The notes under the pieces were generated by a model that was not told the origin of the DNA, ran no database searches, and worked only from the letters and a program-made list of their open reading frames with translations. A DNA stretch of 64,000 bases from Spirochaetia bacterium (GTDB taxonomy: Bacteria > Spirochaetota > Spirochaetia > WTKD01 > G963693115): positions 539,257-603,256 of the forward strand of contig CBDAKK010000008.1 of NCBI GenBank assembly GCA_965196605.1. The letters are read 5' to 3'. Both the position numbers and the translations under genes were made by a program. Below, in pieces: positions 8,441-47,300 of the stretch (the first letter of the stretch is position 1; every line of letters starts with the position of its first letter).

Positions 8441-8454
8441 GCTTTGGTGCATGC

Positions 8455-9330
8455 TTGCCTTTGTGGGGGGTGTATACCCCCACGCCCCCCGTGGGTAAGA
8501 TGCGCATTTGCGCTACGCGCGCGAGGCTGCACGCCGTGTGTGTTCTGCTTGCGCCGTTTTTTATGAACGCTTCTGCGGCTAAGACGCTAGCGTGCTACCA
8601 GCGGTATTGTATGAACGTCTCTTGTTGCCACGACGTAGGATGCACTATGAAAACATTTCGGACGGCTGTACTTTCTTTTTTCTTTTTTCAAAATAACGCG
8701 AGCAGAGCGAGCGGGCGCCACTGCTAGATAGTGGAGCGTTAGCGAAACATGAAATAGAGCAAGCGACAACAAGAAAGGTACCAAAGAAAAAAAGAAAAAG
8801 GAGCCTGCGGCTACAGCCGCAGGAACAGTGTTACGCTGCACGCAACATATGAAAACTATACACAAATAAGTTTGTGTGAATGGCCTTCCCCCCGGCGCTC
8901 AATGCGTCCCATCCATGGGGCGGCTGTGATGACGCTCACAAGCGTAGCGAGGGGATGCAAACTATTGCATAAGCGCCGCTGTGCGGTGCAAAGATGGAAC
9001 TTGCATCAAAAGAGTCGAGAGCCGAAGGCGACAGCCGTAGCAGGGATGCTACGTATTGGCTGCCATGGATGGTACGGGTGCAAACTACTGCATAAGTGCC
9101 GCGATGCGGCACAAACATGGAACTTGCACCAAAGTCGGGAGCGCTGACAAGCGCGATCGGCTAGAAACAATTAAAATAAGTGTCGCGCAGCGACACAGAC
9201 ATGGAGCTTATAGCAAACTCGCTAGTCTTATGAGATATGACACGGACAACGCGCTTACGCGCGATTATTTTATTTATATCCGTAAGTACCTTGAGGTGCT
9301 ACACACAAGTGGCGCAGATTTGCTTCAGAT
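8455..9330. repeat. composite intergenic repeat cluster 1. Contains the G-rich palindrome module, the 'cacgccgtgtgtgt...cgcgcgtagcgc' module and about three reverse-orientation copies of the ~98-bp 'gcaaactattgcataagcgccgc' unit
   Basis: These modules recur at 17270-17840, 40064-41230, 43300-44110 and 46460-47300 (see findings). The ORFs within are artefacts of the repeats. Confidence 0.8.
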
Positions 9331-9334
9331 GTGG

Positions 9335-9465
9335 GGCTACGCCATAGGGAGCAAGACACGAGTATAGGAAGCTACGCGGGTGAGGCTACGCCATAGGAAC
9401 TAAGATACTGAGTTTAGGAAGCTATGCGGGCGAGGCTACCGCCATAGGGGGTAAGAGACAAGCGC
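9335..9465. repeat. tandem repeat, about 2.7 copies of a ~49-bp unit (ggctacgccataggga.caagacacgagtataggaagctacgcgggtga)
   Basis: Direct reading: copy 1 at 9335-9383, copy 2 at 9384-9433 and a partial copy 3. Confidence 0.8.
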
Positions 9466-9640
9466 AAATTGTAAAAAAGACACCAATGACGAGCGCGCGG
9501 TGCTGGGAAGCTGGCGTGTAGGCACACAAGCTTATATACATGCGTGTTTCTGCACGGGTGGCTTTGCGCTGTGTGCTTTGGTACTCATGGGTGAGGTGTT
9601 GGTGTATGGTGTGTTTGAGTTTGCAGAGCAAAAACGAGAA
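9445..9640. repeat. left copy of a ~190-bp direct repeat flanking the two-lipoprotein cassette (partner at 12525..12740)
   Basis: Shared blocks acaagcgcaaattgt..caccaatgacgag...ggctttgcgctgtgtgctt..., about 70-75% identity with the partner. Confidence 0.7.
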
Positions 9641-22012: not shown

Positions 22013-22513
22013 TTATGAAAAGAAAAGAATATTTAGTGCTACGAAAGAGGGTTTAAAGAACTTTATTATTTTTTTCTGTACCTTGTTGCCTGCAGAGTCT
22101 ACTACAACCTTGCCATTGTCCTGCATGGTGAGCGTGTCTTTTATGATTCTGCCTCGCACATTTGCAGAGAGCTGTATGGTGCTTGCAGAACCTGTGCTTT
22201 TTTGCGTCCCTGCAAGGTCAAAGCCTTTTTCAAAGCTGCGGCTTGTTTTGTTGCCAAACCACAGAGAACCACGCACGCTGTTGTTTTTTCCGCGTGTAAG
22301 TCGGTATTGCACAATGAGGTTTTTTGTGCCAAGTGCTAGAGAAAAAGAAAGTCGTTTTGCAAAAGGAAGGCTGCGTCCCCCACGAGCTGCCATAGATTTT
22401 GTTTCCATAGGGTCTATGGTTCCTTCATAGGTGCCAAGTGTGTGTTGTGGCGTGTTCTCACAGCTGGTGAAAACAAAGCTTACAGTTAATAAAAAGCATA
22501 AAAGTTTTTTCAT
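22013..22513 (-). CDS. small lipoprotein, tandem paralog family member 1
   Basis: Signal peptide plus lipobox FVFTSC. Shares the G(T)YEGT motif and the C-terminal DNG..L.D..GNK..KK with the two neighbours. Confidence 0.55.
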   Translation of the reverse strand: MKKLLCFLLTVSFVFTSCENTPQHTLGTYEGTIDPMETKSMAARGGRSLPFAKRLSFSLALGTKNLIVQYRLTRGKNNSVRGSLWFGNKTSRSFEKGFDLAGTQKSTGSASTIQLSANVRGRIIKDTLTMQDNGKVVVDSAGNKVQKKIIKFFKPSFVALNILFFS

Positions 22514-22589: not shown

Positions 22590-22616
22590 ATATATCAAGG
22601 TTAAACGAGCAATGTG

Positions 22617-23195
22617 CTACTTCTTTTTGAGTTTGTTGCCCATAGAGTCTTCTAATACCGCGCCATTGTCCTTTACCTTCAATTCTCCAGGGACTTTTTT
22701 TCCAAAAGCAGATTTTGGATTTACAACTATTTCTTCCAATTGCTTTTTTACTTTTTTGCGTTGCTCAGGAGATAAAGGTAGGGAGTTTAAAGAAGAAAGT
22801 TGTGTTGTTGCAGTTTTTTTTGTTTCTTCTAGTACTATTTTTTGATCTTCTGTACTTAAGCCTTCCAATGTAGTTTCTAGTGTGTACGCCAATATAACCA
22901 TCCCAGCTCTATCTTCTAAATTTCCTGTTATCTTACCAATCTTGATAAACTTACTATCAAATTTTCTTAAAACAGTTCCAGTAACTTTATTGTTGCTTTC
23001 TCGTTTGAGTTTGAACTGACTAGTTACGTTGTTAGCAGTTCCTTCATACGTGCCGTCTATGTTGACAGACGATGCATTATTGCAGCCCTCCGCTGACATG
23101 GAAATAAGTAGCATGAGACCAAACAAAGCGGCCATTGATGTGATTATTCTTTTCATAGAATACTCCTTTTTATTATTAAAATAATAAGTTGTCAA
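22617..23195 (-). CDS. small lipoprotein, tandem paralog family member 2
   Basis: 192 aa with signal peptide. VNIDGTYEGT and C-terminal KDNGAVLEDSMGNKLKKK, paralogous to 23432..23977. Confidence 0.55.
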   Translation of the reverse strand: MTTYYFNNKKEYSMKRIITSMAALFGLMLLISMSAEGCNNASSVNIDGTYEGTANNVTSQFKLKRESNNKVTGTVLRKFDSKFIKIGKITGNLEDRAGMVILAYTLETTLEGLSTEDQKIVLEETKKTATTQLSSLNSLPLSPEQRKKVKKQLEEIVVNPKSAFGKKVPGELKVKDNGAVLEDSMGNKLKKK

Positions 23196-23405: not shown

Positions 23406-23431
23406 ATATCAAGGTGAAAAAAAGCAATGTG

Positions 23432-23977
23432 CTACTTCTTTTTGTACTTCTTGCCGGCAGGGTCTTCTAAGCTAGCGCCGTTATCAAGTACTTTGAACTT
23501 GGCCGCCTTGTTGTCCTTAAACGTGTACAAAGTTTTGAATTGAGCGAGAACTTTTCCAACTAATGTTGTATCTGCTGTAGCCGCTGCGCTAAACGCCTGC
23601 TTTAATTTTTGATTAATTTTATCGGGAACTTGTTTCCCAAGTTCTTTGTCTTGCACTGGTGTTACGGATGTGTTGAGTGTAATGCCACCTCCTTCATCTT
23701 TTAGGTCTCCCTTTATATCGGCAACTTTAATAAAGCCAAGAAACCCATTGGCGTTCATTTCTATGGTTCCGCTGACCTTTTTATTATTATCGCGTTTCAT
23801 GGTAATCTTAAGGGTGCCTTGGAATTTTTCTTTTCCAATTAGTGTTTTAAAATTCCCAGCTGGTAGTTCATCGGTTCGTTCGTAGGTGCCGTCTACGTTG
23901 ACGTTTGAGGCGCACTGCGCTGAAATAAGTAAAACAAGCCCCAGTAACGAAGCCATTGGTATGATAATTCTCTTCAT
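23432..23977 (-). CDS. small lipoprotein, tandem paralog family member 3
   Basis: 181 aa with signal peptide. VNVDGTYERT and C-terminal LDNGASLEDPAGKKYKKK. Confidence 0.55.
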   Translation of the reverse strand: MKRIIIPMASLLGLVLLISAQCASNVNVDGTYERTDELPAGNFKTLIGKEKFQGTLKITMKRDNNKKVSGTIEMNANGFLGFIKVADIKGDLKDEGGGITLNTSVTPVQDKELGKQVPDKINQKLKQAFSAAATADTTLVGKVLAQFKTLYTFKDNKAAKFKVLDNGASLEDPAGKKYKKK

Positions 23978-24321: not shown

Positions 24322-24915
24322 TCAATAATATTTGCTTTCGCGATATGTTTGTTCTCTCATTATTTGCGGGGAAATGAGTCTTAAAAATAAGTCAACATCC
24401 GACTTGTCAAGGTAAATTGGCTCTAAGGTTAACGCCACATTAGAGGTGGAAGTCAAGGAGCCAAACATTATAACCAGCTGGTGTCGCTGCGCGCTTTGAG
24501 AGAAAAAAACAAATACAAGTTCTGCCGAACGCTCTAGTATTGGATAAAAGGTTTTTTCAGGAAAAACCTTTGAAATATGAATGCTTGCATTGAGGTTGTT
24601 TATACTCGTTATTTTCTTTTCTAGGGCTTCTTTGTTGTTCGTTGCTATTCTAGCCCACACGTAGTACTTTTCAAGTGCATCCCGCATCGCTTGTACACTG
24701 GCGGGGTCAAAGTAATAGTAGGCGCTACTGCCTATGGAGTTATAAAATTTTACGTATAAGGCATTATCTTGATAATAAATAGCGCTCTCTTGTTCTACAA
24801 ATTGCTGTGAAGCGCTGTCGTATAATTTATATGTAAATGCTTGGTTCGTAACATCTGTAGCAAAAACCAAAGACACGTGTACGAGTATAAATAACACACT
24901 ACATATTTTTTTCAT
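24322..24915 (-). CDS. hypothetical secreted protein in an AT-rich island
   Basis: 197 aa with signal peptide (VLFILVHVSLVFA). Flanked by intergenic DNA of about 25% GC (24000-24320; 24916-25100). Confidence 0.5.
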   Translation of the reverse strand: MKKICSVLFILVHVSLVFATDVTNQAFTYKLYDSASQQFVEQESAIYYQDNALYVKFYNSIGSSAYYYFDPASVQAMRDALEKYYVWARIATNNKEALEKKITSINNLNASIHISKVFPEKTFYPILERSAELVFVFFSQSAQRHQLVIMFGSLTSTSNVALTLEPIYLDKSDVDLFLRLISPQIMREQTYRESKYY

Positions 24916-25228: not shown

Positions 25229-27376
25229 TTAGAAAACACCGCCATGTTTCTTGACTTTGGCGACAGTGGCGCTGCCATTAATACGCTTATGTAGCATGTC
25301 AAAAACATCGACTCCAAGTTGTTCCAGTACGTCTATAATGTCTATCATCACCCAGTTTTCCTTCAACAAGTTGCCTTCGCGCCTCCAAAAGTCCATAACT
25401 CGCATGGTGCAGGCAATGCCCGTAGCCTTGAGGCCGAGCCAACCATCACCCGTGTGTGTTGCGTACATGGAGGGGAAACCAAAGTCGCACGCGTAGTTTC
25501 CTTCAGCGTATGAGGCAAAGTAATTCTCTGTGTTCTTGGTCATAATACCCCTGTTGGGGAATGCCGTGAGGTAGGGAAACTGGTGATAATTTTGAAACCC
25601 TGCGAGTCCTCGCGTGGTGCCAATGCCTGCGGGGCTGTACCACATCATTTCCTTTGCATTCCAGTATTGAGACAAGTCTCCCATAGAAGTGGGGTCTTTT
25701 CCATCATAACGGCAGAGGGCATCAAGCATGGCTAAGGTGATATTCAGCGTTTTCTTGCTCTCCGTTTTTTCTACGGGGTATGTAATGATGCCGTCACAAG
25801 TCATGGGGGTGCCTACCATGTATGCCGCACCCCTGCTGGGGAAAATATCAAAGCCCGCTTGGTGTATGAGGTCTAATACATCAAGGAGGTACCAAGCGCG
25901 TGTAATTTTTCCATGTTCTAGAACAAAGTGTGCTTGGTATCGTATGGACGCAAGCTGATAGCTGGGTGGAATGCCAAGCCATGAATGCTCAAAGCTTCCT
26001 AGAAAATTCCCGGCAATACTTACGCATTGCTTTTCTTTATACGTGCCGCCCATGACTATGTACGGGGTATCCTCAATGTCGGGGAAGGCATGGTACAGGG
26101 GCTGCAGAAACTGCGTGCAATAGGCCTGTACTCCGTGTATTTCATGAAAGGGCTTTGAGGCATGAAGTACTACATCATCCGACATATGCGCAGCGACTAT
26201 GCCCATGGGCACGGCATCTGTGCGCGCAATGTCGCGATTAAATGCGTTGATATAGGAGAGTACCGTTTTTTTATTTCGTGTGTTAGCATCCGCTGTGTGA
26301 AGTAATGTATGCCTAGTTTTGGGGTGTGCGGGCAGTGCGTATATTTGGCAGAGTACATCGAACATATCGAACACTGACCATTCTTCTTGAATTTTGCCAT
26401 CTACAACTTGAAAGTGCGTTATGCCAACGACGTGTATTATTTTTTCTGAGGGAGCGCCAAAAACTCCATAATTGCAATGAACTCCTGTGATAGTCCAACG
26501 CACTGCAACCTTGTCTCCCGTCTTTCCCGTGTTGCACGTTATTCGTTCTATAAAAATATCCGCATTGGGAATGGAAGAAAAAAACGCGACAAAGTAGTCC
26601 CGGATTTGTCCGGTGCCACAATATTGCTTTTCGCGAATAGAATGTAAGACGGCATTCTCAGCGTAATATTGTTCCACGCGGTTAAAATAGTGCTTGTGCC
26701 ACAGCTCTGTAAAAAGATCCACGACAAGGTCTATAGAACTACCTCTCGTGTTGTTTGTAAACTCGCAACTCGCAATATTGCATGGGGTAATGGCGTTTTC
26801 TTCTCGTACCACGCGTTGGTCTTCTACTTCAAAGTTGAAATTGTAATGATGAGACTCTTTTGCCAACTCAAGCGGGTCACAGCCCAGTTGTTCAAGTATG
26901 TAATAATTATCGCGCACAAGCCATTCCTCTTCTATAATGTTGTTTGCAATAATGCAGTCCGCTATGCCCCGAAGGAAGATTTTTCTCCCCGTAGGCGCGC
27001 CATAGGCTACGCTGTGTCCCAAATGGGTGGCGGTGCTGCCCAAACGGTGCGAAGAGAAAAACTTGTCCCCCTTGGCTTCAGACCAAATGACCTCTTCGCC
27101 ATAAGGTACACGGTCGGGAAAGGTTTGCAAGGTCTTAAGCGTACCGCTGATAACCGCATCCCTACCACTATGAGTGAACAAGCCCATGTGCAAGGTTATG
27201 TCTTCAGCATAGGTGTTGTACAACTCCCCAATACCTTTGTTTTCCCAAATATCATGCGTAATGGAAAGAATGTAATCGACAATGTTTACGTACTTCTTAT
27301 CAAAATTTGTTAGCGTTTGTTTTTCTCCCTTTTTAAGCTGCTTTGCGCTGTAGACAAGTGCATCTATGCCATTCAT
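25229..27376 (-). CDS. protein with four tandem SnoaL/ester-cyclase-like (NTF2-fold) domains
   Basis: Four ~175-aa repeats, each ending in a G(I/A)P.TG(K/R)...EEW.V.D....L.QLG motif (for example GAPTGRKIFLRGIADCIIANNIIEEEWLVRDNYYILEQLG and WLGIPPSYQLASIRYQAHFVLEHGKITRAWYLLDVLDLIHQAG). This resembles the single-domain COG5485 ester cyclases. Confidence 0.45.
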   Translation of the reverse strand: MNGIDALVYSAKQLKKGEKQTLTNFDKKYVNIVDYILSITHDIWENKGIGELYNTYAEDITLHMGLFTHSGRDAVISGTLKTLQTFPDRVPYGEEVIWSEAKGDKFFSSHRLGSTATHLGHSVAYGAPTGRKIFLRGIADCIIANNIIEEEWLVRDNYYILEQLGCDPLELAKESHHYNFNFEVEDQRVVREENAITPCNIASCEFTNNTRGSSIDLVVDLFTELWHKHYFNRVEQYYAENAVLHSIREKQYCGTGQIRDYFVAFFSSIPNADIFIERITCNTGKTGDKVAVRWTITGVHCNYGVFGAPSEKIIHVVGITHFQVVDGKIQEEWSVFDMFDVLCQIYALPAHPKTRHTLLHTADANTRNKKTVLSYINAFNRDIARTDAVPMGIVAAHMSDDVVLHASKPFHEIHGVQAYCTQFLQPLYHAFPDIEDTPYIVMGGTYKEKQCVSIAGNFLGSFEHSWLGIPPSYQLASIRYQAHFVLEHGKITRAWYLLDVLDLIHQAGFDIFPSRGAAYMVGTPMTCDGIITYPVEKTESKKTLNITLAMLDALCRYDGKDPTSMGDLSQYWNAKEMMWYSPAGIGTTRGLAGFQNYHQFPYLTAFPNRGIMTKNTENYFASYAEGNYACDFGFPSMYATHTGDGWLGLKATGIACTMRVMDFWRREGNLLKENWVMIDIIDVLEQLGVDVFDMLHKRINGSATVAKVKKHGGVF

Positions 27377-27420: not shown

Positions 27421-28449
27421 TTATTCTTTATTGCTTCTCTTATTTATCTCACTCATTCTGCCCAGCACATCGAGTCCTTGTTTATAAAGATAGTGGAGCA
27501 AGTCTATAAATACCCAGTTCTCAGCTATTTTGTCTTTGTGTCTGCGGTAGACGTCCACAACGCGCATAGGTGCATGTACCTCACTCGCGGGCAGTCCTAA
27601 AAACCCGCCTACGTTTTTGTTGTTTAAGTTAGGCCAACCAAAAAAGGCGCAATACGCACCTTCGGCAATGCGCGCGACGTGTCCATTAAAAACTTTATCG
27701 CGCAAGTTTTGTCTAAACGGCAGTTGATGATGCTCTTGATATCGCTCTATGGTATATGATGAACCAATTCCAACGGGCCCATGCCATATCATGTCTTCAT
27801 GCCACGTTTGTTCCAAAACCGACTTGGGGCATGTGTTGCTCTTAGACTTGTTCAAGGCATCCAAGTCACCAATCATGCGGTTAATAAGCGCTAAGGTAAG
27901 TGCGCCTTCGCGTTCATCTTGCACGCTTATAAGCAAGCCGTCATGCGTGCGCGGCGCGCTTTTGTAGGCGCAAGGCGTACCAGTCATGGGAGGCAAGGGG
28001 TACACACCTGCTTGGTACATAAGGCTCAAAATGTCAATAAAAAGCGCCGTCTCTACAATGACCCCGTTCTCTACAGCGTGAAACTCCGCATAGGGTAAAA
28101 AAGCCATCTTCCCGTTTGAGGGTATGCCGAGCCAATTGTGGTCAAAGAGTCCTAAAAAATTCCCAATGCTCGCCACCCATGTGGTTTTACCACCATCGCA
28201 GTCATTTGCTCCTGCAAGGAATATGTCCTCACGCCTTTGCAAGGACAAGAGCGCGCGCCGAAGCGGCAGCCAAAATGCATGCGCAACTTCCGCCGCTCCA
28301 TGTTTTTCGTCAAAGGGATGCATGCCCCGCCAGTAATATGAAGTGCTTGTATAGCGTTCTAAAATCCTCAGCAGGTCTTCATCGCGCGCATCCTCTAAGG
28401 CTTGGTGGTACTCTCGCACCACACGCTTGTCTTGAGCAAAATTATTCAT
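27421..28449 (-). CDS. protein with two tandem SnoaL/ester-cyclase-like (NTF2-fold) domains
   Basis: Two repeats with NWLGIPSNGKMAFLPYAEFHAVENGVIVETALFIDILSLMYQAG and GFLGLPASEVHAPMRVVDVYRRHKDKIAENWVFIDLLHYLYKQG, paralogous to the 715-aa protein. Confidence 0.45.
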   Translation of the reverse strand: MNNFAQDKRVVREYHQALEDARDEDLLRILERYTSTSYYWRGMHPFDEKHGAAEVAHAFWLPLRRALLSLQRREDIFLAGANDCDGGKTTWVASIGNFLGLFDHNWLGIPSNGKMAFLPYAEFHAVENGVIVETALFIDILSLMYQAGVYPLPPMTGTPCAYKSAPRTHDGLLISVQDEREGALTLALINRMIGDLDALNKSKSNTCPKSVLEQTWHEDMIWHGPVGIGSSYTIERYQEHHQLPFRQNLRDKVFNGHVARIAEGAYCAFFGWPNLNNKNVGGFLGLPASEVHAPMRVVDVYRRHKDKIAENWVFIDLLHYLYKQGLDVLGRMSEINKRSNKE

Positions 28450-40063: not shown

Positions 40064-41230
40064 TTAACTATTACCATGGTGATGCTTTTGGCTCGTTATG
40101 TAAAGAATGAACATGCCTAAGCCGAGAGTGGGGGAGCTGCCCCCACGCCCCCCTTGGGGTAAGACACGGTATTGCGCATGAGCGCTTTGTGGGTGAGCGC
40201 CCCCCCACCCCCCTTTGGGCAAGACGCCTCTTTGCGCTATGCGCGAGTGTTTGTGCCATGGCTCACGCGATGTGTTGCTCACGCTATTTGTTGCCAAGCA
40301 GCTATTCTAAATACGCTATTCATTCGGATGGCCGTTCTTTCTTTTCTTTTTTACCATCCATGGCAGCCAATGCGCCCCGTCCATGGGGCGGCTGTGATGA
40401 CGCAAAAAGAGTCGAGAGCCGAAGGCGAACGGGTGCAAACTATTGCATAAGTGCCGCAATGCGGCACAAACATGGAACTTGCACCAAAGAAAGAACCAAA
40501 GAAAAGAAAAAAACATCCTGTGTGCTAAAGCAGTAATGGCATAGATACTGTGCGTAAGTATTAAAAAGTACCCAAGAAAGTCACGAACGTAGTGAGGGGA
40601 TGCAAACTATTAAATGGCGGAGCGAAGCGGTCGCTCGCCCCATGGATGGGGCAAATAAGAGCGCCATGGACGGTGCAGAAATGGAGTACTCGCACCAAAG
40701 AAAGAAAGTAAGCTATCCGAAGATTTAGCATATCGCGCTAGCGCCTTAGTCGCAAAAGGCGTTCACGCAATGCTGCGCAAGCAGAACACATACGGCGTTA
40801 GCCCCCGCGCGTGTAGCTCAGTACAGCGTCTTACCGCAGTGGGGGTGTGGGGGCGTGCTGTCCCCACAAAGGCACGTATGGCACGCAGCGTGTTTCTTGT
40901 GTGGTTCGCTCGGTGTCCCTTAAGTGGTATGTGTATGCCTTGCAAGGACGAAAGACGAAAGCCATAGGCGAAATAAGCAACGCGCTAAGGAAACGCTAGG
41001 AAAACGGAAAACGCTTTGCGCAAAGCGTCATTGCGTAAAAAGGGGGCGGTGGGTGGAAAGCCACGCGGCTCGGGGGCTTGGGGCTCAAGTTGTCATGAGC
41101 CTACGCCTCATGTGTATATTCCGCGGCGCGGCTTAAAGCCTCAAGCAGTTGTCCGCTGTCGCTTGTGCTGCGTACTACACGGTAGCATGAGCCCGCCGCG
41201 CCTACATACGCGCCTTAGCTGCTACTTACA
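40064..41230. repeat. composite intergenic repeat cluster 3 (reverse orientation; includes a second sub-copy at 40740-40900)
   Basis: G-rich palindromes at 40130-40215 and 40838-40872, ~98-bp units at 40370-40500 and 40560-40700, and the 'gtgccatggctcacgcgatgtgttgctcacgctatttgttgcca' module. The ORFs within are spurious. Confidence 0.8.
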
Positions 41231-41689: not shown

Positions 41690-43294
41690 ATGCCTTGCAC
41701 TCCTTCAAAAAACATGCCCCCCCTGTTGCGCGTGCACAACTTGTGTGTAAGCGCACCCCACCATTCACAGCGCATTGTACGTGACGTGTCGTTTTGCATG
41801 CACCGTGGAGAGCACATTGCGGTCATAGGTGACTCGGGCTCGGGGAAAACAACGCTGCTCAAGGCCATTGCGGGGGTTCTCCCTCATGCGTGGCATGCAT
41901 CGGGTTGTGTGCAGGTGCCGCACCATGAGCTTGCGTACATTATGCAAGAGCCCAAGGCAGCGCTTAACCCCATACGCAGCATTAAGGCCATGTTTGCAGC
42001 GCTGCGTCATAGCAGGCGCTTTGCCGGCATGAGCGCAAAGCAAACAAGCGAGCGCATTAGGCAGCGCATGCATGCAGCATTTAATGCAATGAAACTCATT
42101 GACAATGCTGAGGCAGACCTTGCAAAGAACGGGTCGGGCTTTTCGGACTTACACAACTTGCTTGCAAAGCGCCGTACGCAGGTCTCAGGAGGCATGGCGC
42201 AGCGCATTATGGTGGCCTTGGCCATTACTGCGGGTTCTACGGTGGCACTTGCTGATGAAGTGAGTTCCGCGCTCGATGAGAAGCACGAACGCAAAACCAT
42301 TGAGACCTTGCTTGCCGCTATGCAAGGCGTGCTGTTTGTAACGCATAGAATGAACCTTGTTAAGGACTACTGCCATAAAGTGCTGGTGCTTCAGAATGGT
42401 GCAGTGCATTTTTTTGGTGACGTGGCGCAGTGGTTGCGGGAGCACGGTGATGATGAACACAACGCGGCAGGTGTTATGACGGGGCATGCTAGCACGCAAG
42501 GGCGTAAAAAGAGCCATGCGCGCGCTCAAAACGGCAGCACTGCTAGGCATGGCGGGCTTGGTGGCGTTGTGTTGCGCTGTGAGCGCGTAGGCGTGTACTA
42601 TGACAAGCCGTCGTTTTTGCCACGCGCAACAAGCGGTGTGCGCAACTTTGTGCTGCAAGGCCTCAACTTTAGCGCGCGCGCGCGAGAGGTTGTCTTGGTG
42701 CGTGGCGAAACCGGCTGTGGCAAAAGCACCTTTGCGCATGTGTGCGCAGGGCAGCTTCAGCCTTGCACGGGGGCGGTGTGCATGCATAATACCCCCATGC
42801 CCTATGGTTCGGCGCGTGCCATGCGCATTTTTAGGCGGGACGTGCAGCTTATTTCGCAAGTGCCCTCCTTGAGTTTTAACCCGCTGCGCACGGTGCTCAG
42901 CAGCCTCATGGACGCGCACGCCACAATGTCGCGGGCAGAAAAACAGCGCAGTCAGGAGTACCTGCAGCAGCTGTGTAAGACCATGCACATTTCTCAGGCG
43001 CAGCTTGCGCGCTTCCCCCATGAGCTTTCTGGTGGGCAGCTCCAACGCATCGCCATTATACGCGCCTTGCTGCCGCACCCAAACATCCTCATCCTCGACG
43101 AACCGGTGAGTCACTTGGACCCACGCATACGCATACAAGTGTTGGAGCGCATAGCTGCATTGCACGCACAAACGCGCATAACGCTTATTGTTATTTCGCA
43201 CCTTGAGGAGGTATGCGCCTTTATAAAACGTAGCTATGCGCAATACACCGCCTATGCCCTAGAACATGGCGCGCTTGTGCCGCTTGAAACCTAA
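41690..43294 (+). CDS. ABC transporter ATP-binding protein with duplicated NBDs (DppD-DppF fusion, YejF/GsiA-like). No cognate permease is adjacent
   Basis: GDSGSGKTT/VSGGMAQRIMVALAI and GETGCGKST/LSGGQLQRIAIIRAL. The ORF-track start is 41624; the likely start is MPCTPSK or MPPLL. The gene is notably GC-rich (about 60%). Confidence 0.7.
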   Translation: MPCTPSKNMPPLLRVHNLCVSAPHHSQRIVRDVSFCMHRGEHIAVIGDSGSGKTTLLKAIAGVLPHAWHASGCVQVPHHELAYIMQEPKAALNPIRSIKAMFAALRHSRRFAGMSAKQTSERIRQRMHAAFNAMKLIDNAEADLAKNGSGFSDLHNLLAKRRTQVSGGMAQRIMVALAITAGSTVALADEVSSALDEKHERKTIETLLAAMQGVLFVTHRMNLVKDYCHKVLVLQNGAVHFFGDVAQWLREHGDDEHNAAGVMTGHASTQGRKKSHARAQNGSTARHGGLGGVVLRCERVGVYYDKPSFLPRATSGVRNFVLQGLNFSARAREVVLVRGETGCGKSTFAHVCAGQLQPCTGAVCMHNTPMPYGSARAMRIFRRDVQLISQVPSLSFNPLRTVLSSLMDAHATMSRAEKQRSQEYLQQLCKTMHISQAQLARFPHELSGGQLQRIAIIRALLPHPNILILDEPVSHLDPRIRIQVLERIAALHAQTRITLIVISHLEEVCAFIKRSYAQYTAYALEHGALVPLET

Positions 43295-43299
43295 GGCTT

Positions 43300-44058
43300 C
43301 ACATGTGAAAGGTTGCCTTGTGTGGCACGCCCCTGCAAAGGCAAGGCACAGGGTGCGGCGCTCCACCGTAGCGTAGTGCTAGGGAGTCTGACAGCACTAT
43401 GTCAGAGAGTCTGACAGCACTATGTCAGGGAGTCTGACGGCACTATGTCAGACACCACCGTAGCATAGTGCGGTACTCCACCGCAGCATAGTGCGCTGCC
43501 GCCTTGCCACATGTGCTAAGACACAGCCCCCCGCAGCACTGAGACGTGTAAGCTGCACGCCGTGTGTGTGATGGCTCACGCTATTTGTACCATTCATGGC
43601 ACACAATGTGTCCCATGAATGGTGAGCAGCGCACTCACACAAACTTACTTCCATACAATCTTCATACTTGCGCACAGTATCTATGTTATTATTGCTTTAG
43701 CACACAGGATGTTTTCTTTTCTTTCTTTGGTTCTTTTCTTTCTTTTCTTTTCCGTCCTGAAAAGAAAAGAAAGAAAGAACGGCCAACCGAAGTGTTTGCT
43801 TAGTGCGCTCACGTCATGGCAACAAGAGGCGTTCACGCAATACTGCGCAAGCAAAACACACACGGCGTGCAGCCTACCCGCGCGTAGCGCAATATAGCGT
43901 CTTACCCCAAGGGGGGTGTGGGGGCGCTCCCCCACAAAGCGCTTATGCACATATAGCGTCTTACCCCAAGGGGGGGGGTGGGGGCGCTCCCCCACAAAGG
44001 CAAGACACAACGCTATGTGGTATGAAGGGTAGTTGCTTTATATATCATGCTTACATTT
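43300..44058. repeat. composite intergenic repeat cluster 4, bounded by 38-bp perfect direct repeats (43241..43278 and 44061..44098)
   Basis: Contains the 23-bp array, the 'gtgatggctcacgctatttgt' module, the 20-bp-arm hairpin 'ttctttctttcttttcttttccgtcctgaaaagaaaagaaagaaagaa' and two G-rich palindromes (43915-43990). Confidence 0.8.
43381..43449. repeat. three tandem 23-bp units, each containing the palindrome CTGACAgcactaTGTCAG
   Basis: Units at 43381-43403, 43404-43426 and 43427-43449, flanked by 'ccaccgtagcatagtgc' motifs (43362, 43454, 43476) that are complementary to the unit core. Confidence 0.85.
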
Positions 44059-44129
44059 GTGCAGTACACCGCCTATGCCCTAGAACATGGCGCGCTTGTG
44101 CGTCTTGAGAATAAAAGTTTACTTTGTGC

Positions 44130-45173
44130 TTATTGTAAGCGCGTTGGTACTTTTGGTATGGTAAGTTTGCCCGATAATACCTGTTGTTTGTAGCGCGATA
44201 CGAGCTCTAAAAATTCCGCGCTTACGTTGGGGTTTTCTTGTGGTATACCCACACCTCCGTTTTCTAGCGAGAATGTAAGTACTTTTCCACCAGGAAAATT
44301 GCCTTGCTTTGCTAAGTTTGCAACATTGTGTGTGGCAACATCTACGCGTTTTACCATGGAGCTGAGAATTACAGATTTGTCTTTAGCGTAAATGCCTTCT
44401 TCATATTGGTCTCTATCAACCCCAATAATCCATACACGTTCTCCGTTTAGTGCACGATCCTTCGCTTCTTTAATAGCACCGTTTCCAGTAGTTGCAGCTG
44501 CGTGAAAAATCACGCCAACGCCAGCGTCGTACATTTTTGCAGCAAAGGCTTGTCCAAGGGACGGGGCAGAAAAGTCAGCGGCGTATTCCACAAGTATTTC
44601 TAAATCTGGTGCAACTGTTTTCACGCCTTTTTCAAACCCGGCTTCAAAACGATGTATCACATCAAATTCCATTCCACCGATAAAGCCTACTTTTTCTTTC
44701 CTTTCTGCTTGTGATTGAAGCCCCGCTATAACTCCAACGAGGAATGAGCCTTCTTCTTCTTTAAACACAGCGCTTACAACATTGGGCTTTGGGACGGCGG
44801 TGTCAATGATGAGAAACTGTTTGGTGGGGAAATTTTGAGCAACTTTTGTAATGGCTTCGGTAAATGTAAAGCCCGCCGCCACAATAAGTGTTGTATCGTT
44901 GTCGGCAAGTGCGCTCAAATTTGGAAGATAATCGGAATGAGTACTTGATTGCACATAGGTATACTGCGCCTTTGAGAGATTTTCTTGAGATGCAAATTTT
45001 GTAATACCTTCCCATGCGCTTTGATTAAACGCCTTGTCATCAATGCCACCTATGTCGGTTACGAGCCCCACAGAAAATGACGTAGATTGTTTTTTAGTAC
45101 AGGCGTTTAAACCGCCTCCCATGATCAATGCTATTGATAGTATGTAGAAAGTCGTCTTCATAAGTTCCCCCAT
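44130..45173 (-). CDS. BMP family lipoprotein, orphan paralog of 39003..40058
   Basis: Lipobox GLNAC, then FSVGLVTDIGGIDDKAFNQSAWEGI. About 60% identical to the first BMP protein, with no adjacent transporter genes. Confidence 0.85.
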   Translation of the reverse strand: MGELMKTTFYILSIALIMGGGLNACTKKQSTSFSVGLVTDIGGIDDKAFNQSAWEGITKFASQENLSKAQYTYVQSSTHSDYLPNLSALADNDTTLIVAAGFTFTEAITKVAQNFPTKQFLIIDTAVPKPNVVSAVFKEEEGSFLVGVIAGLQSQAERKEKVGFIGGMEFDVIHRFEAGFEKGVKTVAPDLEILVEYAADFSAPSLGQAFAAKMYDAGVGVIFHAAATTGNGAIKEAKDRALNGERVWIIGVDRDQYEEGIYAKDKSVILSSMVKRVDVATHNVANLAKQGNFPGGKVLTFSLENGGVGIPQENPNVSAEFLELVSRYKQQVLSGKLTIPKVPTRLQ

Positions 45174-46457: not shown

Positions 46458-46459
46458 GT

Positions 46460-47300
46460 GCCTTGTGGGGGCACGCCCCCACACCCCCGCGCGTCTTGAG
46501 TGCTAAGCACGGGTTACTTCGTGTTTGTTGCTTACGCTATTTGTGCCATCCATGGCACAGTTGTCGCCTTCGGCTCTCCACTCTTTTGATGCAAGCTCCA
46601 TGTTTGCACCGCACAGCGGCGCTTATGCAATAGTTTGCATCCCCTCGCTACGCTCGCGACTTTTTGGTTCTTTTTCTTTTCTTTTGATGCAAGTTCCATG
46701 TTTGTGCCGCATTGCGGCACTTATGCAACAGTTTGCATCCCCTCGCTACGCTCGCGACTTTTTGGTTCTTTTTCTTTTCTTTTGATGCAAGTTCCATGTT
46801 TGTGCCGCATTGCGGCACTTATGCAACAGTTTGCATCCCCTCGCTACGCTCGTGACTTTGGTACTTTCTTCTTTGGCGCGAGTATTCATACAAACTTACT
46901 TACATACAATCTTCATACTTGCGTAGAGTAGCTATGTTATTACTGCTTTAGCACACAGGAGGCTTTTTTCTCTTTTCTTTGGTACTTTCTTTTCTCTTTT
47001 TTGCATCCATAAAAAAGAGAAAAGAAAGTACAGCCGTCCGAGGCATCATCATATCGCGTCACGCGCCGTGGCAACACAGAGCGTGAGCAACATACCGCGT
47101 GAGCCATCACACACACGGCGTGTAGCTTACTCGCGCGTAAGCGCAGAACGACCAGCAGTAGGGGTGTGGGGGCGTGCTGCCCCCACAAAGGCACGCGTGG
47201 AGCGCAAACAAGGGGGGTGGGTGGGGTGTTATTGCTATAAAATGGGTATTGTCGTATTCTTTTAGGTAGTGATACTTGGGTATTGCGGGTGCTATGTTCC
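46460..47300. repeat. composite intergenic repeat cluster 5, including three tandem ~98-bp units at 46583..46876
   Basis: G-rich palindromes at 46465-46495 and 47160-47225. Units 2 and 3 (46681-46778, 46779-46876) are near-identical. Hairpin 'ctttcttttctcttttttgcatccataaaaaagagaaaagaaag' at about 46985-47030. Confidence 0.85.

Follow-up and report, generated by a model that had tools for sequence, protein, structure and literature searches.

The 98-bp tandem units in the window analysed here (the whole stretch of 64,000 nucleotides at positions 539,257 to 603,256 of contig CBDAKK010000008.1, assembly GCA_965196605.1, from a Spirochaetia bacterium) are probably non-coding hairpin modules of a lineage-specific interspersed mosaic element resembling BOX, bacterial interspersed mosaic elements (BIMEs) and miniature inverted-repeat transposable elements (MITEs). 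We assign this interpretation a probability of about 0.72. Because the elements combine inverted end modules, a hairpin interior, a tandem module of variable number and a strictly extragenic site, often right after stop codons, the family is placed among the interspersed mosaic repeats of bacteria, which are a known class; membership of the BOX, BIME or MITE sequence families is not claimed. An earlier note on this DNA, made from its letters, had described the units and overlooked that they are one module of a larger mosaic. All-against-all BLAST and a repeat finder revealed six long intergenic spacers that share modules in similar order with 70–93% identity. Five large mosaics (A, C, D, E and F) are 0.6–1.2 kb long, GC-rich and composed almost wholly of hairpins, and B is a fragment. 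Together they occupy 6.6% of the window, and their GC content is 46–54% (48–54% in the five large ones) as compared with 44.5% in the remainder.

The flagged array is located in mosaic F (46458–47225, plus strand), a 768-bp insertion that extends from the stop codon of an M23 peptidase gene to the conserved sequence upstream of a TPR-protein gene. Tandem Repeats Finder identifies a period of 98 with 3.0 copies and 93% matches at 46582–46874, and the three head-to-tail units of the earlier note are confirmed at 46582–46875. Unit F1 (46582–46679; repeat family D1; 86.4 bits with a covariance model) has the hairpin variant GCACCGC-ACA-GCGGCGC and a tail of the alpha type. Unit F2 (46680–46777; 90.5 bits) has GTGCCGC-ATT-GCGGCAC, and its extended hairpin folds with z = -3.2 on the plus strand and -3.8 on the minus strand. 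The loop of the array is ATT on the plus strand, AAT being the opposite strand. The terminal unit F3 (46778–46875), found both by Tandem Repeats Finder and by the covariance model, has the head of F2 and a tail variant that joins the next module. Pairwise alignment counts 7 differing positions between F1 and F2, not the roughly 10 stated earlier, all of them within the first 50 nt that form the hairpin half, and the 48-nt tails of the two units are identical. The near-identity of the second and third units is borne out by their first 75 nt, which are the same. An exact period-98 stretch covers 46632–46852, in which 123 nt are repeated without change at an offset of 98 bp (46632–46754 and 46730–46852). 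This marks a single tandem duplication of 98 bp that took place very recently; the F array, whose recent growth had been proposed, therefore went from two to three units. Such an exact duplication shows that the process changing the unit number is active in this genome.

A covariance model (R1) was built from seven good unit copies and run unfiltered over the whole window. It detects ten copies at four loci rather than the five loci reported before: three in F, three in A, one in D and three diverged ones in C, all confined to long intergenic spacers. The seven good copies score 70–92 bits (three in F on the plus strand, three at 8950–9217 on the minus strand and one at 40428–40488 on the minus strand), the three diverged copies within 17270–17584 score 18–28 bits, and nothing else in the window rises above noise. 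The window contains 7 copies of the core 21-mer of the unit, with 0.08 expected by chance. The earlier claim of homologous copies elsewhere holds for their positions and orientations (17270–17616 in the same orientation, 8916–9222 and 40394–40491 in reverse) but not for their arrangement, because true head-to-tail 98-bp arrays are present only at F and C (17421–17604 in C, 81% matches). The A units do not abut at 98 bp, their spacings being 123 and 84 bp, and D consists of one full unit and one half unit with a different module, termed P, between them.

The hairpin of the unit varies considerably among these loci. A perfect GTGCCGC-N3-GCGGCAC stem, ascribed earlier to each unit, is found in four of the ten (F2, F3, A2 and D1). 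Unit A1 (8916–9013, minus strand; family I1; 84.5 bits) has the same variant as F1, GCACCGC/GCGGCGC with one mismatch. Unit A2 (9039–9136, minus strand; 88.6 bits), which reads GTGCCGC-GAT-GCGGCAC on the plus strand, has a beta-type tail broken by an insert containing a CCATGG hairpin. Unit A3 (9137–9222, minus strand; 69.6 bits) is diverged and shows compensated variants of both stems, GTGTCGC/GCGACAC and the outer GCTATAA/TTTCTAGC. Unit D1 (40394–40491, minus strand; 91.8 bits) has a beta tail and is the single full unit inside the pyrimidine/purine hairpin of mosaic D; the half unit D2 (40559–40611, minus strand), separated from D1 by the P module, retains the 3' half only. The C units lack the GTGCCGC stem. 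C0 (17277–17374, plus strand; 26.3 bits) has the hairpin GTGGGGG-TTT-GCCCCCA of the G5 type in its place, and its 3' half is 98% identical to F1. C1 and C2 (17421–17616, plus strand; 18.1 and 28.4 bits) are diverged and chimeric 98-bp units, for which Tandem Repeats Finder gives a period of 98, 1.9 copies and 81% matches, and neither of them forms a stable inner hairpin (fold z = -0.2 and -0.7).

A set of modules recurs from mosaic to mosaic. It comprises G5 hairpins (GCGTCTTACCCCAAGGGGGG-TGTGGGGG-N-CCCCCAC), CCATGG-centred palindromes, the 98-bp unit, the P module (...CTATGTTATTACTGCTTTAGCACACAGGATG), a module rich in GCGTGAGC and a long pyrimidine/purine hairpin. For the pattern GGGGG-N(2-12)-CCCCC, 13 overlapping matches lie at ten hairpin sites, all inside mosaics, as opposed to an expectation of 0.06. 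The P module of F (46912–46970, plus strand; TTCATACTTGCG...ATGTTATTACTGCTTTAGCACACAGGAGG; families D4, I8, I10, I15 and I24) is also present at 17369–17427 and 43661–43719 and in reverse at 40502–40564 and 12477–12523. The pyrimidine/purine hairpin is perfect over 21 bp in F (46982–47031, plus strand) and over 18 bp in its counterpart in E (43735–43776), and its arms differ between copies yet remain complementary to each other. In C, D and A, these arms are split by 100–150 nt, with the units lying within the split in C and D.

Inverted G5 modules mark the two ends of every large mosaic. In F, the left terminal inverted repeat (46458–46488) pairs through 46471–46487 with 47161–47177 at 17 of 17 positions; the right terminal G5 hairpin module (family D11) occupies 47155–47206, and its pairing with the left terminus continues to about 47197 and extends to about 30 bp in the fold. 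In D (40120–40890, minus strand), the bounding modules at 40139–40177 and 40816–40854 match over 39 nt at 79%. The bounds of A (8441–9600, minus strand, beginning 19 nt past the stop codon of a DUF327 gene), C (17277–17850, plus strand, between a divergent acyltransferase gene and an apparent ribosomal protein S21 gene) and E (43295–44042, plus strand) were read from the sequence. Fragment B (12477–12661; families D12 and D13) consists of a reversed P module and a module common to 9457–9578, and overlaps the last codons of the open reading frame (ORF) 11638–12492. The 768-nt F insert folds as a panhandle with its termini paired (-300 kcal/mol, z = -10.7). It is quite unlikely, in our judgement, that the mosaics represent an undescribed large (~0.75 kb) panhandle-forming non-autonomous element whose G5 ends resemble repetitive extragenic palindromes (REPs) and whose 98-bp unit is a selectable cargo, for example a structured RNA or a single-stranded-DNA signal preserved through compensatory evolution, so that variation in unit number would regulate or insulate, in a tunable way, adjacent operons such as mreBCD-pbp2-rodA downstream of F. 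If this were true, the element would have spread through the spacers between genes until it made up several per cent of a small spirochaete genome.

The number of units is variable within the family. The large mosaics contain 0, 1.5, 2.5, 3 and 3 units, with none in E and three in both F and A. Mosaic E (family D3) belongs to the same family, being 75% identical to F over 313 nt, and holds every other module without a unit, and therefore unit number varies among homologous elements. The position of the units differs as well: they lie within the loop of the pyrimidine/purine hairpin in C and D and upstream of the P module in F and A. The pyrimidine tract at the C1/C2 junction (17503–17527) and the pyrimidine arm of E (43721–43745) are 100% identical, suggesting that pyrimidine tracts are substrates for recombination or slippage. 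Hairpin variants are shared between loci and not within arrays, F1 resembling A1, and F2 and F3 resembling D1 and A2. Furthermore, the homology between A1 and F runs 35 nt past the unit (8941–9048 matches 46654–46547 at 92.6%). These similarities indicate copying or conversion of composite pieces between loci.

Other parts of the mosaics are also repeated in tandem. A degenerate G5-type module is present as 2.4 copies of 50 bp at 9331–9448 in A, and G5 modules of about 60 bp are duplicated at 40128–40245 in D and at 43892–43999 in E. Amplification in tandem thus characterises these regions in general and not the 98-bp unit alone. The left part of E contains three exact-period 23-bp tandem units (43384–43452; GAGTCTGACAGCACTATGTCAGA), each a small palindrome TCTGACA...TGTCAGA, with degenerate CACCGTAGC(A/G)TAGTGC repeats on both sides. 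In two places, repeats overlap ORFs: 12477–12523 covers the last ~16 nt of ORF 11638–12492, which has no Pfam match, and 17277–17388 covers the 5' extension of ORF 16387–17388, the longest ORF of the acyltransferase. Either the repeats supply a few terminal codons there, or the starts and ends of the longest ORFs are wrong at these places.

The mosaics are insertions into the spacers of core genes. The flanking genes encode a DUF327 protein, an acyltransferase, Bmp/PnrA-type lipoproteins, an ABC ATPase, the M23 peptidase and the TPR protein, followed by mreB, mreC, pbp2 and rodA. Besides the 100% entry of the source genome itself, the closest homologue of the M23 protein (64% amino-acid identity) is encoded on a 1.8-Mb metagenomic contig (locus L015); its nearest named homologues are from Alkalispirochaeta (38–42% identity). 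The gene order is the same in L015 and the spacers are short: the M23–TPR spacer is 131 bp as compared with 872 bp in the window, and the bmp–gcvH spacer is 129 bp as compared with 1167 bp. The mosaic modules are absent from L015. The sole intergenic similarity, between L015 11241–11279 and window 47226–47264, corresponds to the conserved sequence upstream of the TPR gene, and the F insertion is therefore delimited to 46458–47225, beginning right after the M23 stop codon.

It is highly improbable that the long spacers are decayed gene remnants (pseudogene debris) or an assembly artefact. The source contig is 1.14 Mb long as compared with 1.8 Mb for the relative, its spacers are unusually long, and a remnant copy of a gene end adjoins mosaic E, all of which would fit such an origin. 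However, L015 has no genes at those positions, the same modules occur at six unrelated loci in both orientations, and translations of the unit array match only two spurious singletons in a collection of 5.8 billion proteins. Moreover, the copies are diverged (70–93% identity), unlike collapsed or duplicated reads, and unit variants are common to different loci (F1 with A1; F2 with D1 and A2).

The remnant next to E is the last 66 bp of the ABC-ATPase gene, duplicated across the mosaic (43222–43287 and 44043–44108, 83% identical; family D10). This 66-bp duplication is not a typical target-site duplication. It is followed by an additional Bmp/PnrA paralogue (44130–45173, minus strand), which is absent in L015, where the M23 gene comes 20 bp after the ABC gene. 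This suggests that the C-terminus of the ATPase was regenerated by a rearrangement or insertion at the 3' end of its gene.

Good units consist of an extended hairpin of about 55 nt, followed by a short GC-rich stretch and a pyrimidine tract. The hairpin folds on either strand and has an outer stem GATGCAA/TTGCATC and an inner stem GTGCCGC-N3-GCGGCAC; two types of tail are distinguished, alpha (CCCCTCGCTACGCTCGCGAC...) and beta (CCCGTTCGCCTTCGGCTCTCGAC...). The fold z-scores are between -2.5 and -3.8 for F2 and D1 on both strands and for F1 on the plus strand, the minus strand of F1 giving -1.3. In the alignment of the seven copies, 95% of the cells are paired. Four base pairs, two in each main stem, have changed on both sides (A-T to G-C or C-G, G-C to A-T, T-A to C-G and C-G to T-A), and the observed covariation is reached by none of 500 column shuffles and is lost when the 3' partners are slid. 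The palindrome thus appears to be maintained; with six distinct sequences, the evidence that both stems are kept by compensatory double substitutions is suggestive. The asymmetries between G-U wobbles and A-C mismatches favour opposite strands in different pairs, and therefore they indicate no transcribed strand and the covariation fits RNA as well as single-stranded DNA.

The double substitutions in both stems and the significantly stable folds on either strand would also be expected if the units were functional structured RNA recruited by the host, such as tandem small-RNA genes, protein-titrating hairpin arrays or terminator and insulator modules, whose effect is tuned by unit number. The G5 end facing the start of the next gene in three of the five mosaics (C, D and F) agrees with such a role, and BOX modules are reported to alter the expression of neighbouring genes (PMC3049150). 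However, orientation is inconsistent, with A and E convergent with the neighbouring gene, the wobble asymmetries contradict each other as to the transcribed strand, the C units have lost the hairpin, and the L015 relative runs the same operons without units. Searches with Rfam 15 at gathering thresholds detected only RNase P and two tRNAs in the window and matched no mosaic module; at E ≤ 1, the pyrimidine/purine hairpin gave generic microRNA-like matches only, and no family was placed on the units. In a consensus scan, counts of sigma-70-like promoters and intrinsic terminators were not above those in shuffled sequences, and none lay in the units. We therefore regard host-recruited RNA as unlikely, and prefer the interpretation of the unit as a hairpin module of a mosaic repeat.

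The 98-bp unit is non-coding. The earlier note had suggested that it might encode a conserved peptide, and the peptide ANYCISAAMRHKHGTCTK with its two synonymous differences between the copies at 9074 and 40429 is indeed present as described, but the coding proposal is not supported. The period of 98 is 3 x 32 + 2 and not a multiple of three, and therefore the reading frame shifts from unit to unit. The bias of substitutions towards synonymous positions in one frame, for which a test had been proposed, is not seen among the copies in the window: 24 of the 60 gap-free core columns of the seven copies are variable, and whatever the frame, they are split 6/11/7 among the codon positions. In the frame of the peptide, non-synonymous codon differences from F2 outnumber synonymous ones by 27 to 7, A3 has a stop, and six-frame translation reveals that this frame (...RGDANCCISAAMRHKHGTCIK...) is closed by stops inside every F unit. 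In simulations, the probability that two random changes in a 61-mer are both synonymous in some stop-free frame is 0.20 for any substitution and 0.39 for transitions, so that the observed synonymy is at chance level. A peptide-coding unit is therefore rejected on the lack of a third-position excess, the in-frame stops, the period, the absence of homologous proteins in the searches made and the chance-level synonymy.

When both-strand read-through translations of the F array were compared with the collection of 5.8 billion proteins, the only matches were two singletons, P0095 on a 300-kb contig and P0096 on a 485-kb contig. Local tblastn indicates that both are ORF calls that extend across several repeat modules, and that the two read the unit on different strands and in different frames. 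These spurious calls reveal at least two further mosaic copies on other contigs, with modules in the same order. A six-frame translation of the mosaics used as a protein query gave nothing at E ≤ 1, for which its length of 2263 aa and its X padding are probably both to blame.

A wider proposal, that the repeats encode small proteins, either this peptide or a hydrophobic, lysine-rich one that starts at an ATG in the P module and resembles type I toxin–antitoxin products, is very unlikely. LDR and QUAD repeats of E. coli are multicopy loci of this kind. The P-module ATG, as read from the sequence, opens a 62-codon ORF in E (MFSFLSLVLFFLFFSVLKRKERKN...) and is also present in C and D, and gene callers have called ORFs across two other copies. 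However, this ATG is missing in F and A, and the putative Shine-Dalgarno sequence AGGA directly abuts it. The downstream "protein" is wholly different between copies because units have been inserted behind the ATG in C and D, and its toxin-like appearance is a matter of base composition, pyrimidine tracts giving F, L and S and purine tracts K, R and E in any frame. The period of 98, the stops in the frames and the lack of codon-position bias apply here too, and P0095 and P0096 remain singletons on different frames and strands.

The repeat family appears to be lineage-specific as far as seen, because only chance-level matches were obtained in the collections searched. In 596 Gb of genomes, matches to the exact core were limited to one Omnitrophica locus and a Desulfobacterales motif that is unrelated; our own estimate of the pattern frequency predicts about 9 matches by chance. 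Five matches in JGI metagenomes were all chance matches of 20–24 nt with unrelated flanks, and none was found in viral contigs. The 768-bp F insert had no blastn match in plasmids and phages, and a literature search on intergenic repeats of spirochaetes or symbionts found nothing relevant. The Desulfobacterales motif, met by chance, belongs to a different conserved multicopy element in contigs of metagenome-assembled genomes of Desulfobacterales/Deltaproteobacteria (L001–L006 and L008–L014, e.g. L001 900–1040). It consists of ...TACGCCCCCTTATGCATGAGTTTGCATCC, a GC hairpin (CGCCNNGGCGGG) and then ACTGATGATTCATG, and lies upstream of unrelated genes at 13 loci. It has no Rfam match at gathering thresholds, and it has only the 21-mer in common with the window repeat and is otherwise unrelated.

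Transposition of a non-autonomous element, or else recombination, is the probable means by which the mosaics spread. Pyrimidine tracts of almost the same sequence (TTTCTTTGGTTCTTTTCTTT) flank every unit and serve in addition as one arm of the long hairpin. If replication slippage or unequal recombination took place at them, the number of units would change, and units could come to lie at different positions in the mosaic. The hairpin, kept by compensatory changes, would be needed for the propagation or stability of the element as single-stranded DNA or RNA, or may be preserved by intra-palindrome repair. Host effects such as transcription termination, insulation or protection of mRNA 3' ends would be by-products, as for REP, BIME and BOX.

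Several observations weigh against such a mosaic element. There is no target-site duplication at F, the sole insertion mapped to the base (its flanks, ...GGAGTAA to the left and GTGTTATTGC to the right, share no direct repeat). A Pfam scan of 30 ORFs of the window found no transposase and no REP-associated tyrosine transposase (RAYT), and the remainder of the window shows synteny with L015, for which no transposase family is listed; because the 64-kb window holds neither, mobility can only be inferred. The copies are few, with seven good units of which six are distinct, and some of the covariation could be shared ancestry. The compensatory upkeep of both stems leaves room for a function at the host level. 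The mixed orientation relative to the flanking genes counters a single regulatory role but is no proof of selfishness.

If the mosaic interpretation is right, the window reveals a new family of mosaic repeats, intergenic and restricted to a spirochaete-like lineage about which little is known, amounting to about 6–7% of the window though the genome seems small. Such repeats generate spurious ORF calls, P0095 and P0096 among them, and hamper assembly, and they offer variable-number tandem-repeat markers for strain typing. They would also represent a case of an interspersed-repeat hairpin module kept by compensatory substitutions amid flux in copy number, which is relevant to the persistence of repeats in compact genomes. 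No new functional category is opened.

Elsewhere in the window, ORFs 22617–23195 and 23432–23977 (minus strand, ~190 aa) have no Pfam match and share 3' ends with 74% identity (22603–22682 and 23418–23497); they look like tandem paralogues of an uncharacterised small protein. Two nearby ORFs (22013–22513 and 24322–24915) also have no Pfam match. The adjacent large ORFs 25229–27376 and 27421–28449 (minus strand) contain SnoaL-like polyketide-cyclase domains, with two matched stretches in the 715-aa ORF, a domain content that is unusual for a seemingly small spirochaete genome.

Four other kinds of repeat system were considered and dropped. A clustered regularly interspaced short palindromic repeat (CRISPR) array does not fit, since the 98-bp units abut without spacers (repeats of 23–50 bp would be expected) and no Cas domains were found among the flanking genes. 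Judged from the sequence, integron attC sites were discarded for the lack of cassette genes between flanking syntenic core genes, template and variable repeats of diversity-generating retroelements for the lack of adenine-specific differences, and iterons because the unit is too long.

The end modules resemble REPs, elements that are mobilised by RAYT transposases. The sequence definition of REPs is a palindrome preceded by the 5' tetranucleotide GT[AG]G (PMC3686654). The G5 modules (GTGGGGG-N3-6-CCCCCAC, 10 sites) meet this definition and resemble Pseudomonas REPs such as GTGGCGAGGGGGCTTGCCCCCG, but the hairpin of the unit itself starts with GTGC and does not. Like REPs and BIMEs, the G5 modules are strictly extragenic and often lie immediately behind a stop codon; they form inverted pairs and join with other motifs in mosaics. 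In REPIN doublets, however, the inverted copies are tens of nt apart, whereas the paired G5 modules are 638–673 nt apart; closely set G5 modules occur only as tandems of the same orientation (43912–43997 and 40128–40245). A further difference is that the mosaics carry long non-REP modules in their interior. IS200/IS605-type single-strand transposition leaves no target duplication, and none is seen in mosaic F, as would be expected of this route. The mosaics share with MITEs such as Correia/NEMIS and RUP their non-coding nature, a length below 1 kb, terminal inverted repeats, multiple intergenic copies and strong single-strand folding. They differ in the lack of a target-site duplication and in being structurally heterogeneous rather than uniform, and we know of no parent insertion sequence with matching ends.

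By architecture alone, the closest analogue would be the pneumococcal BOX element. BOX elements of S. pneumoniae and S. suis are built as boxA - boxB x n - boxC, with variable boxB number, independently folding boxB, terminal inverted repeats, spurious ORFs and changes by slippage or unequal crossover (PMC3049150). There is no apparent sequence relationship in this comparison, which covers architecture only, and the host belongs to another phylum. The short boxB contrasts with the 98-bp unit, and BOX elements of 67–637 bp contrast with mosaics of 0.6–1.2 kb. Unlike BOX, the mosaics contain many more types of module, carry units at two positions and show no target-site duplication. Nevertheless, both are composite intergenic elements with fixed end modules and an internal module in variable tandem number. 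Terminal inverted repeats are common to both, as is a predicted stem-loop RNA with an independently folding internal module, and both present open frames on both strands that are picked up by gene callers. In both, the length of the array is thought to change through slipped-strand mispairing or unequal crossover (PMC3049150).

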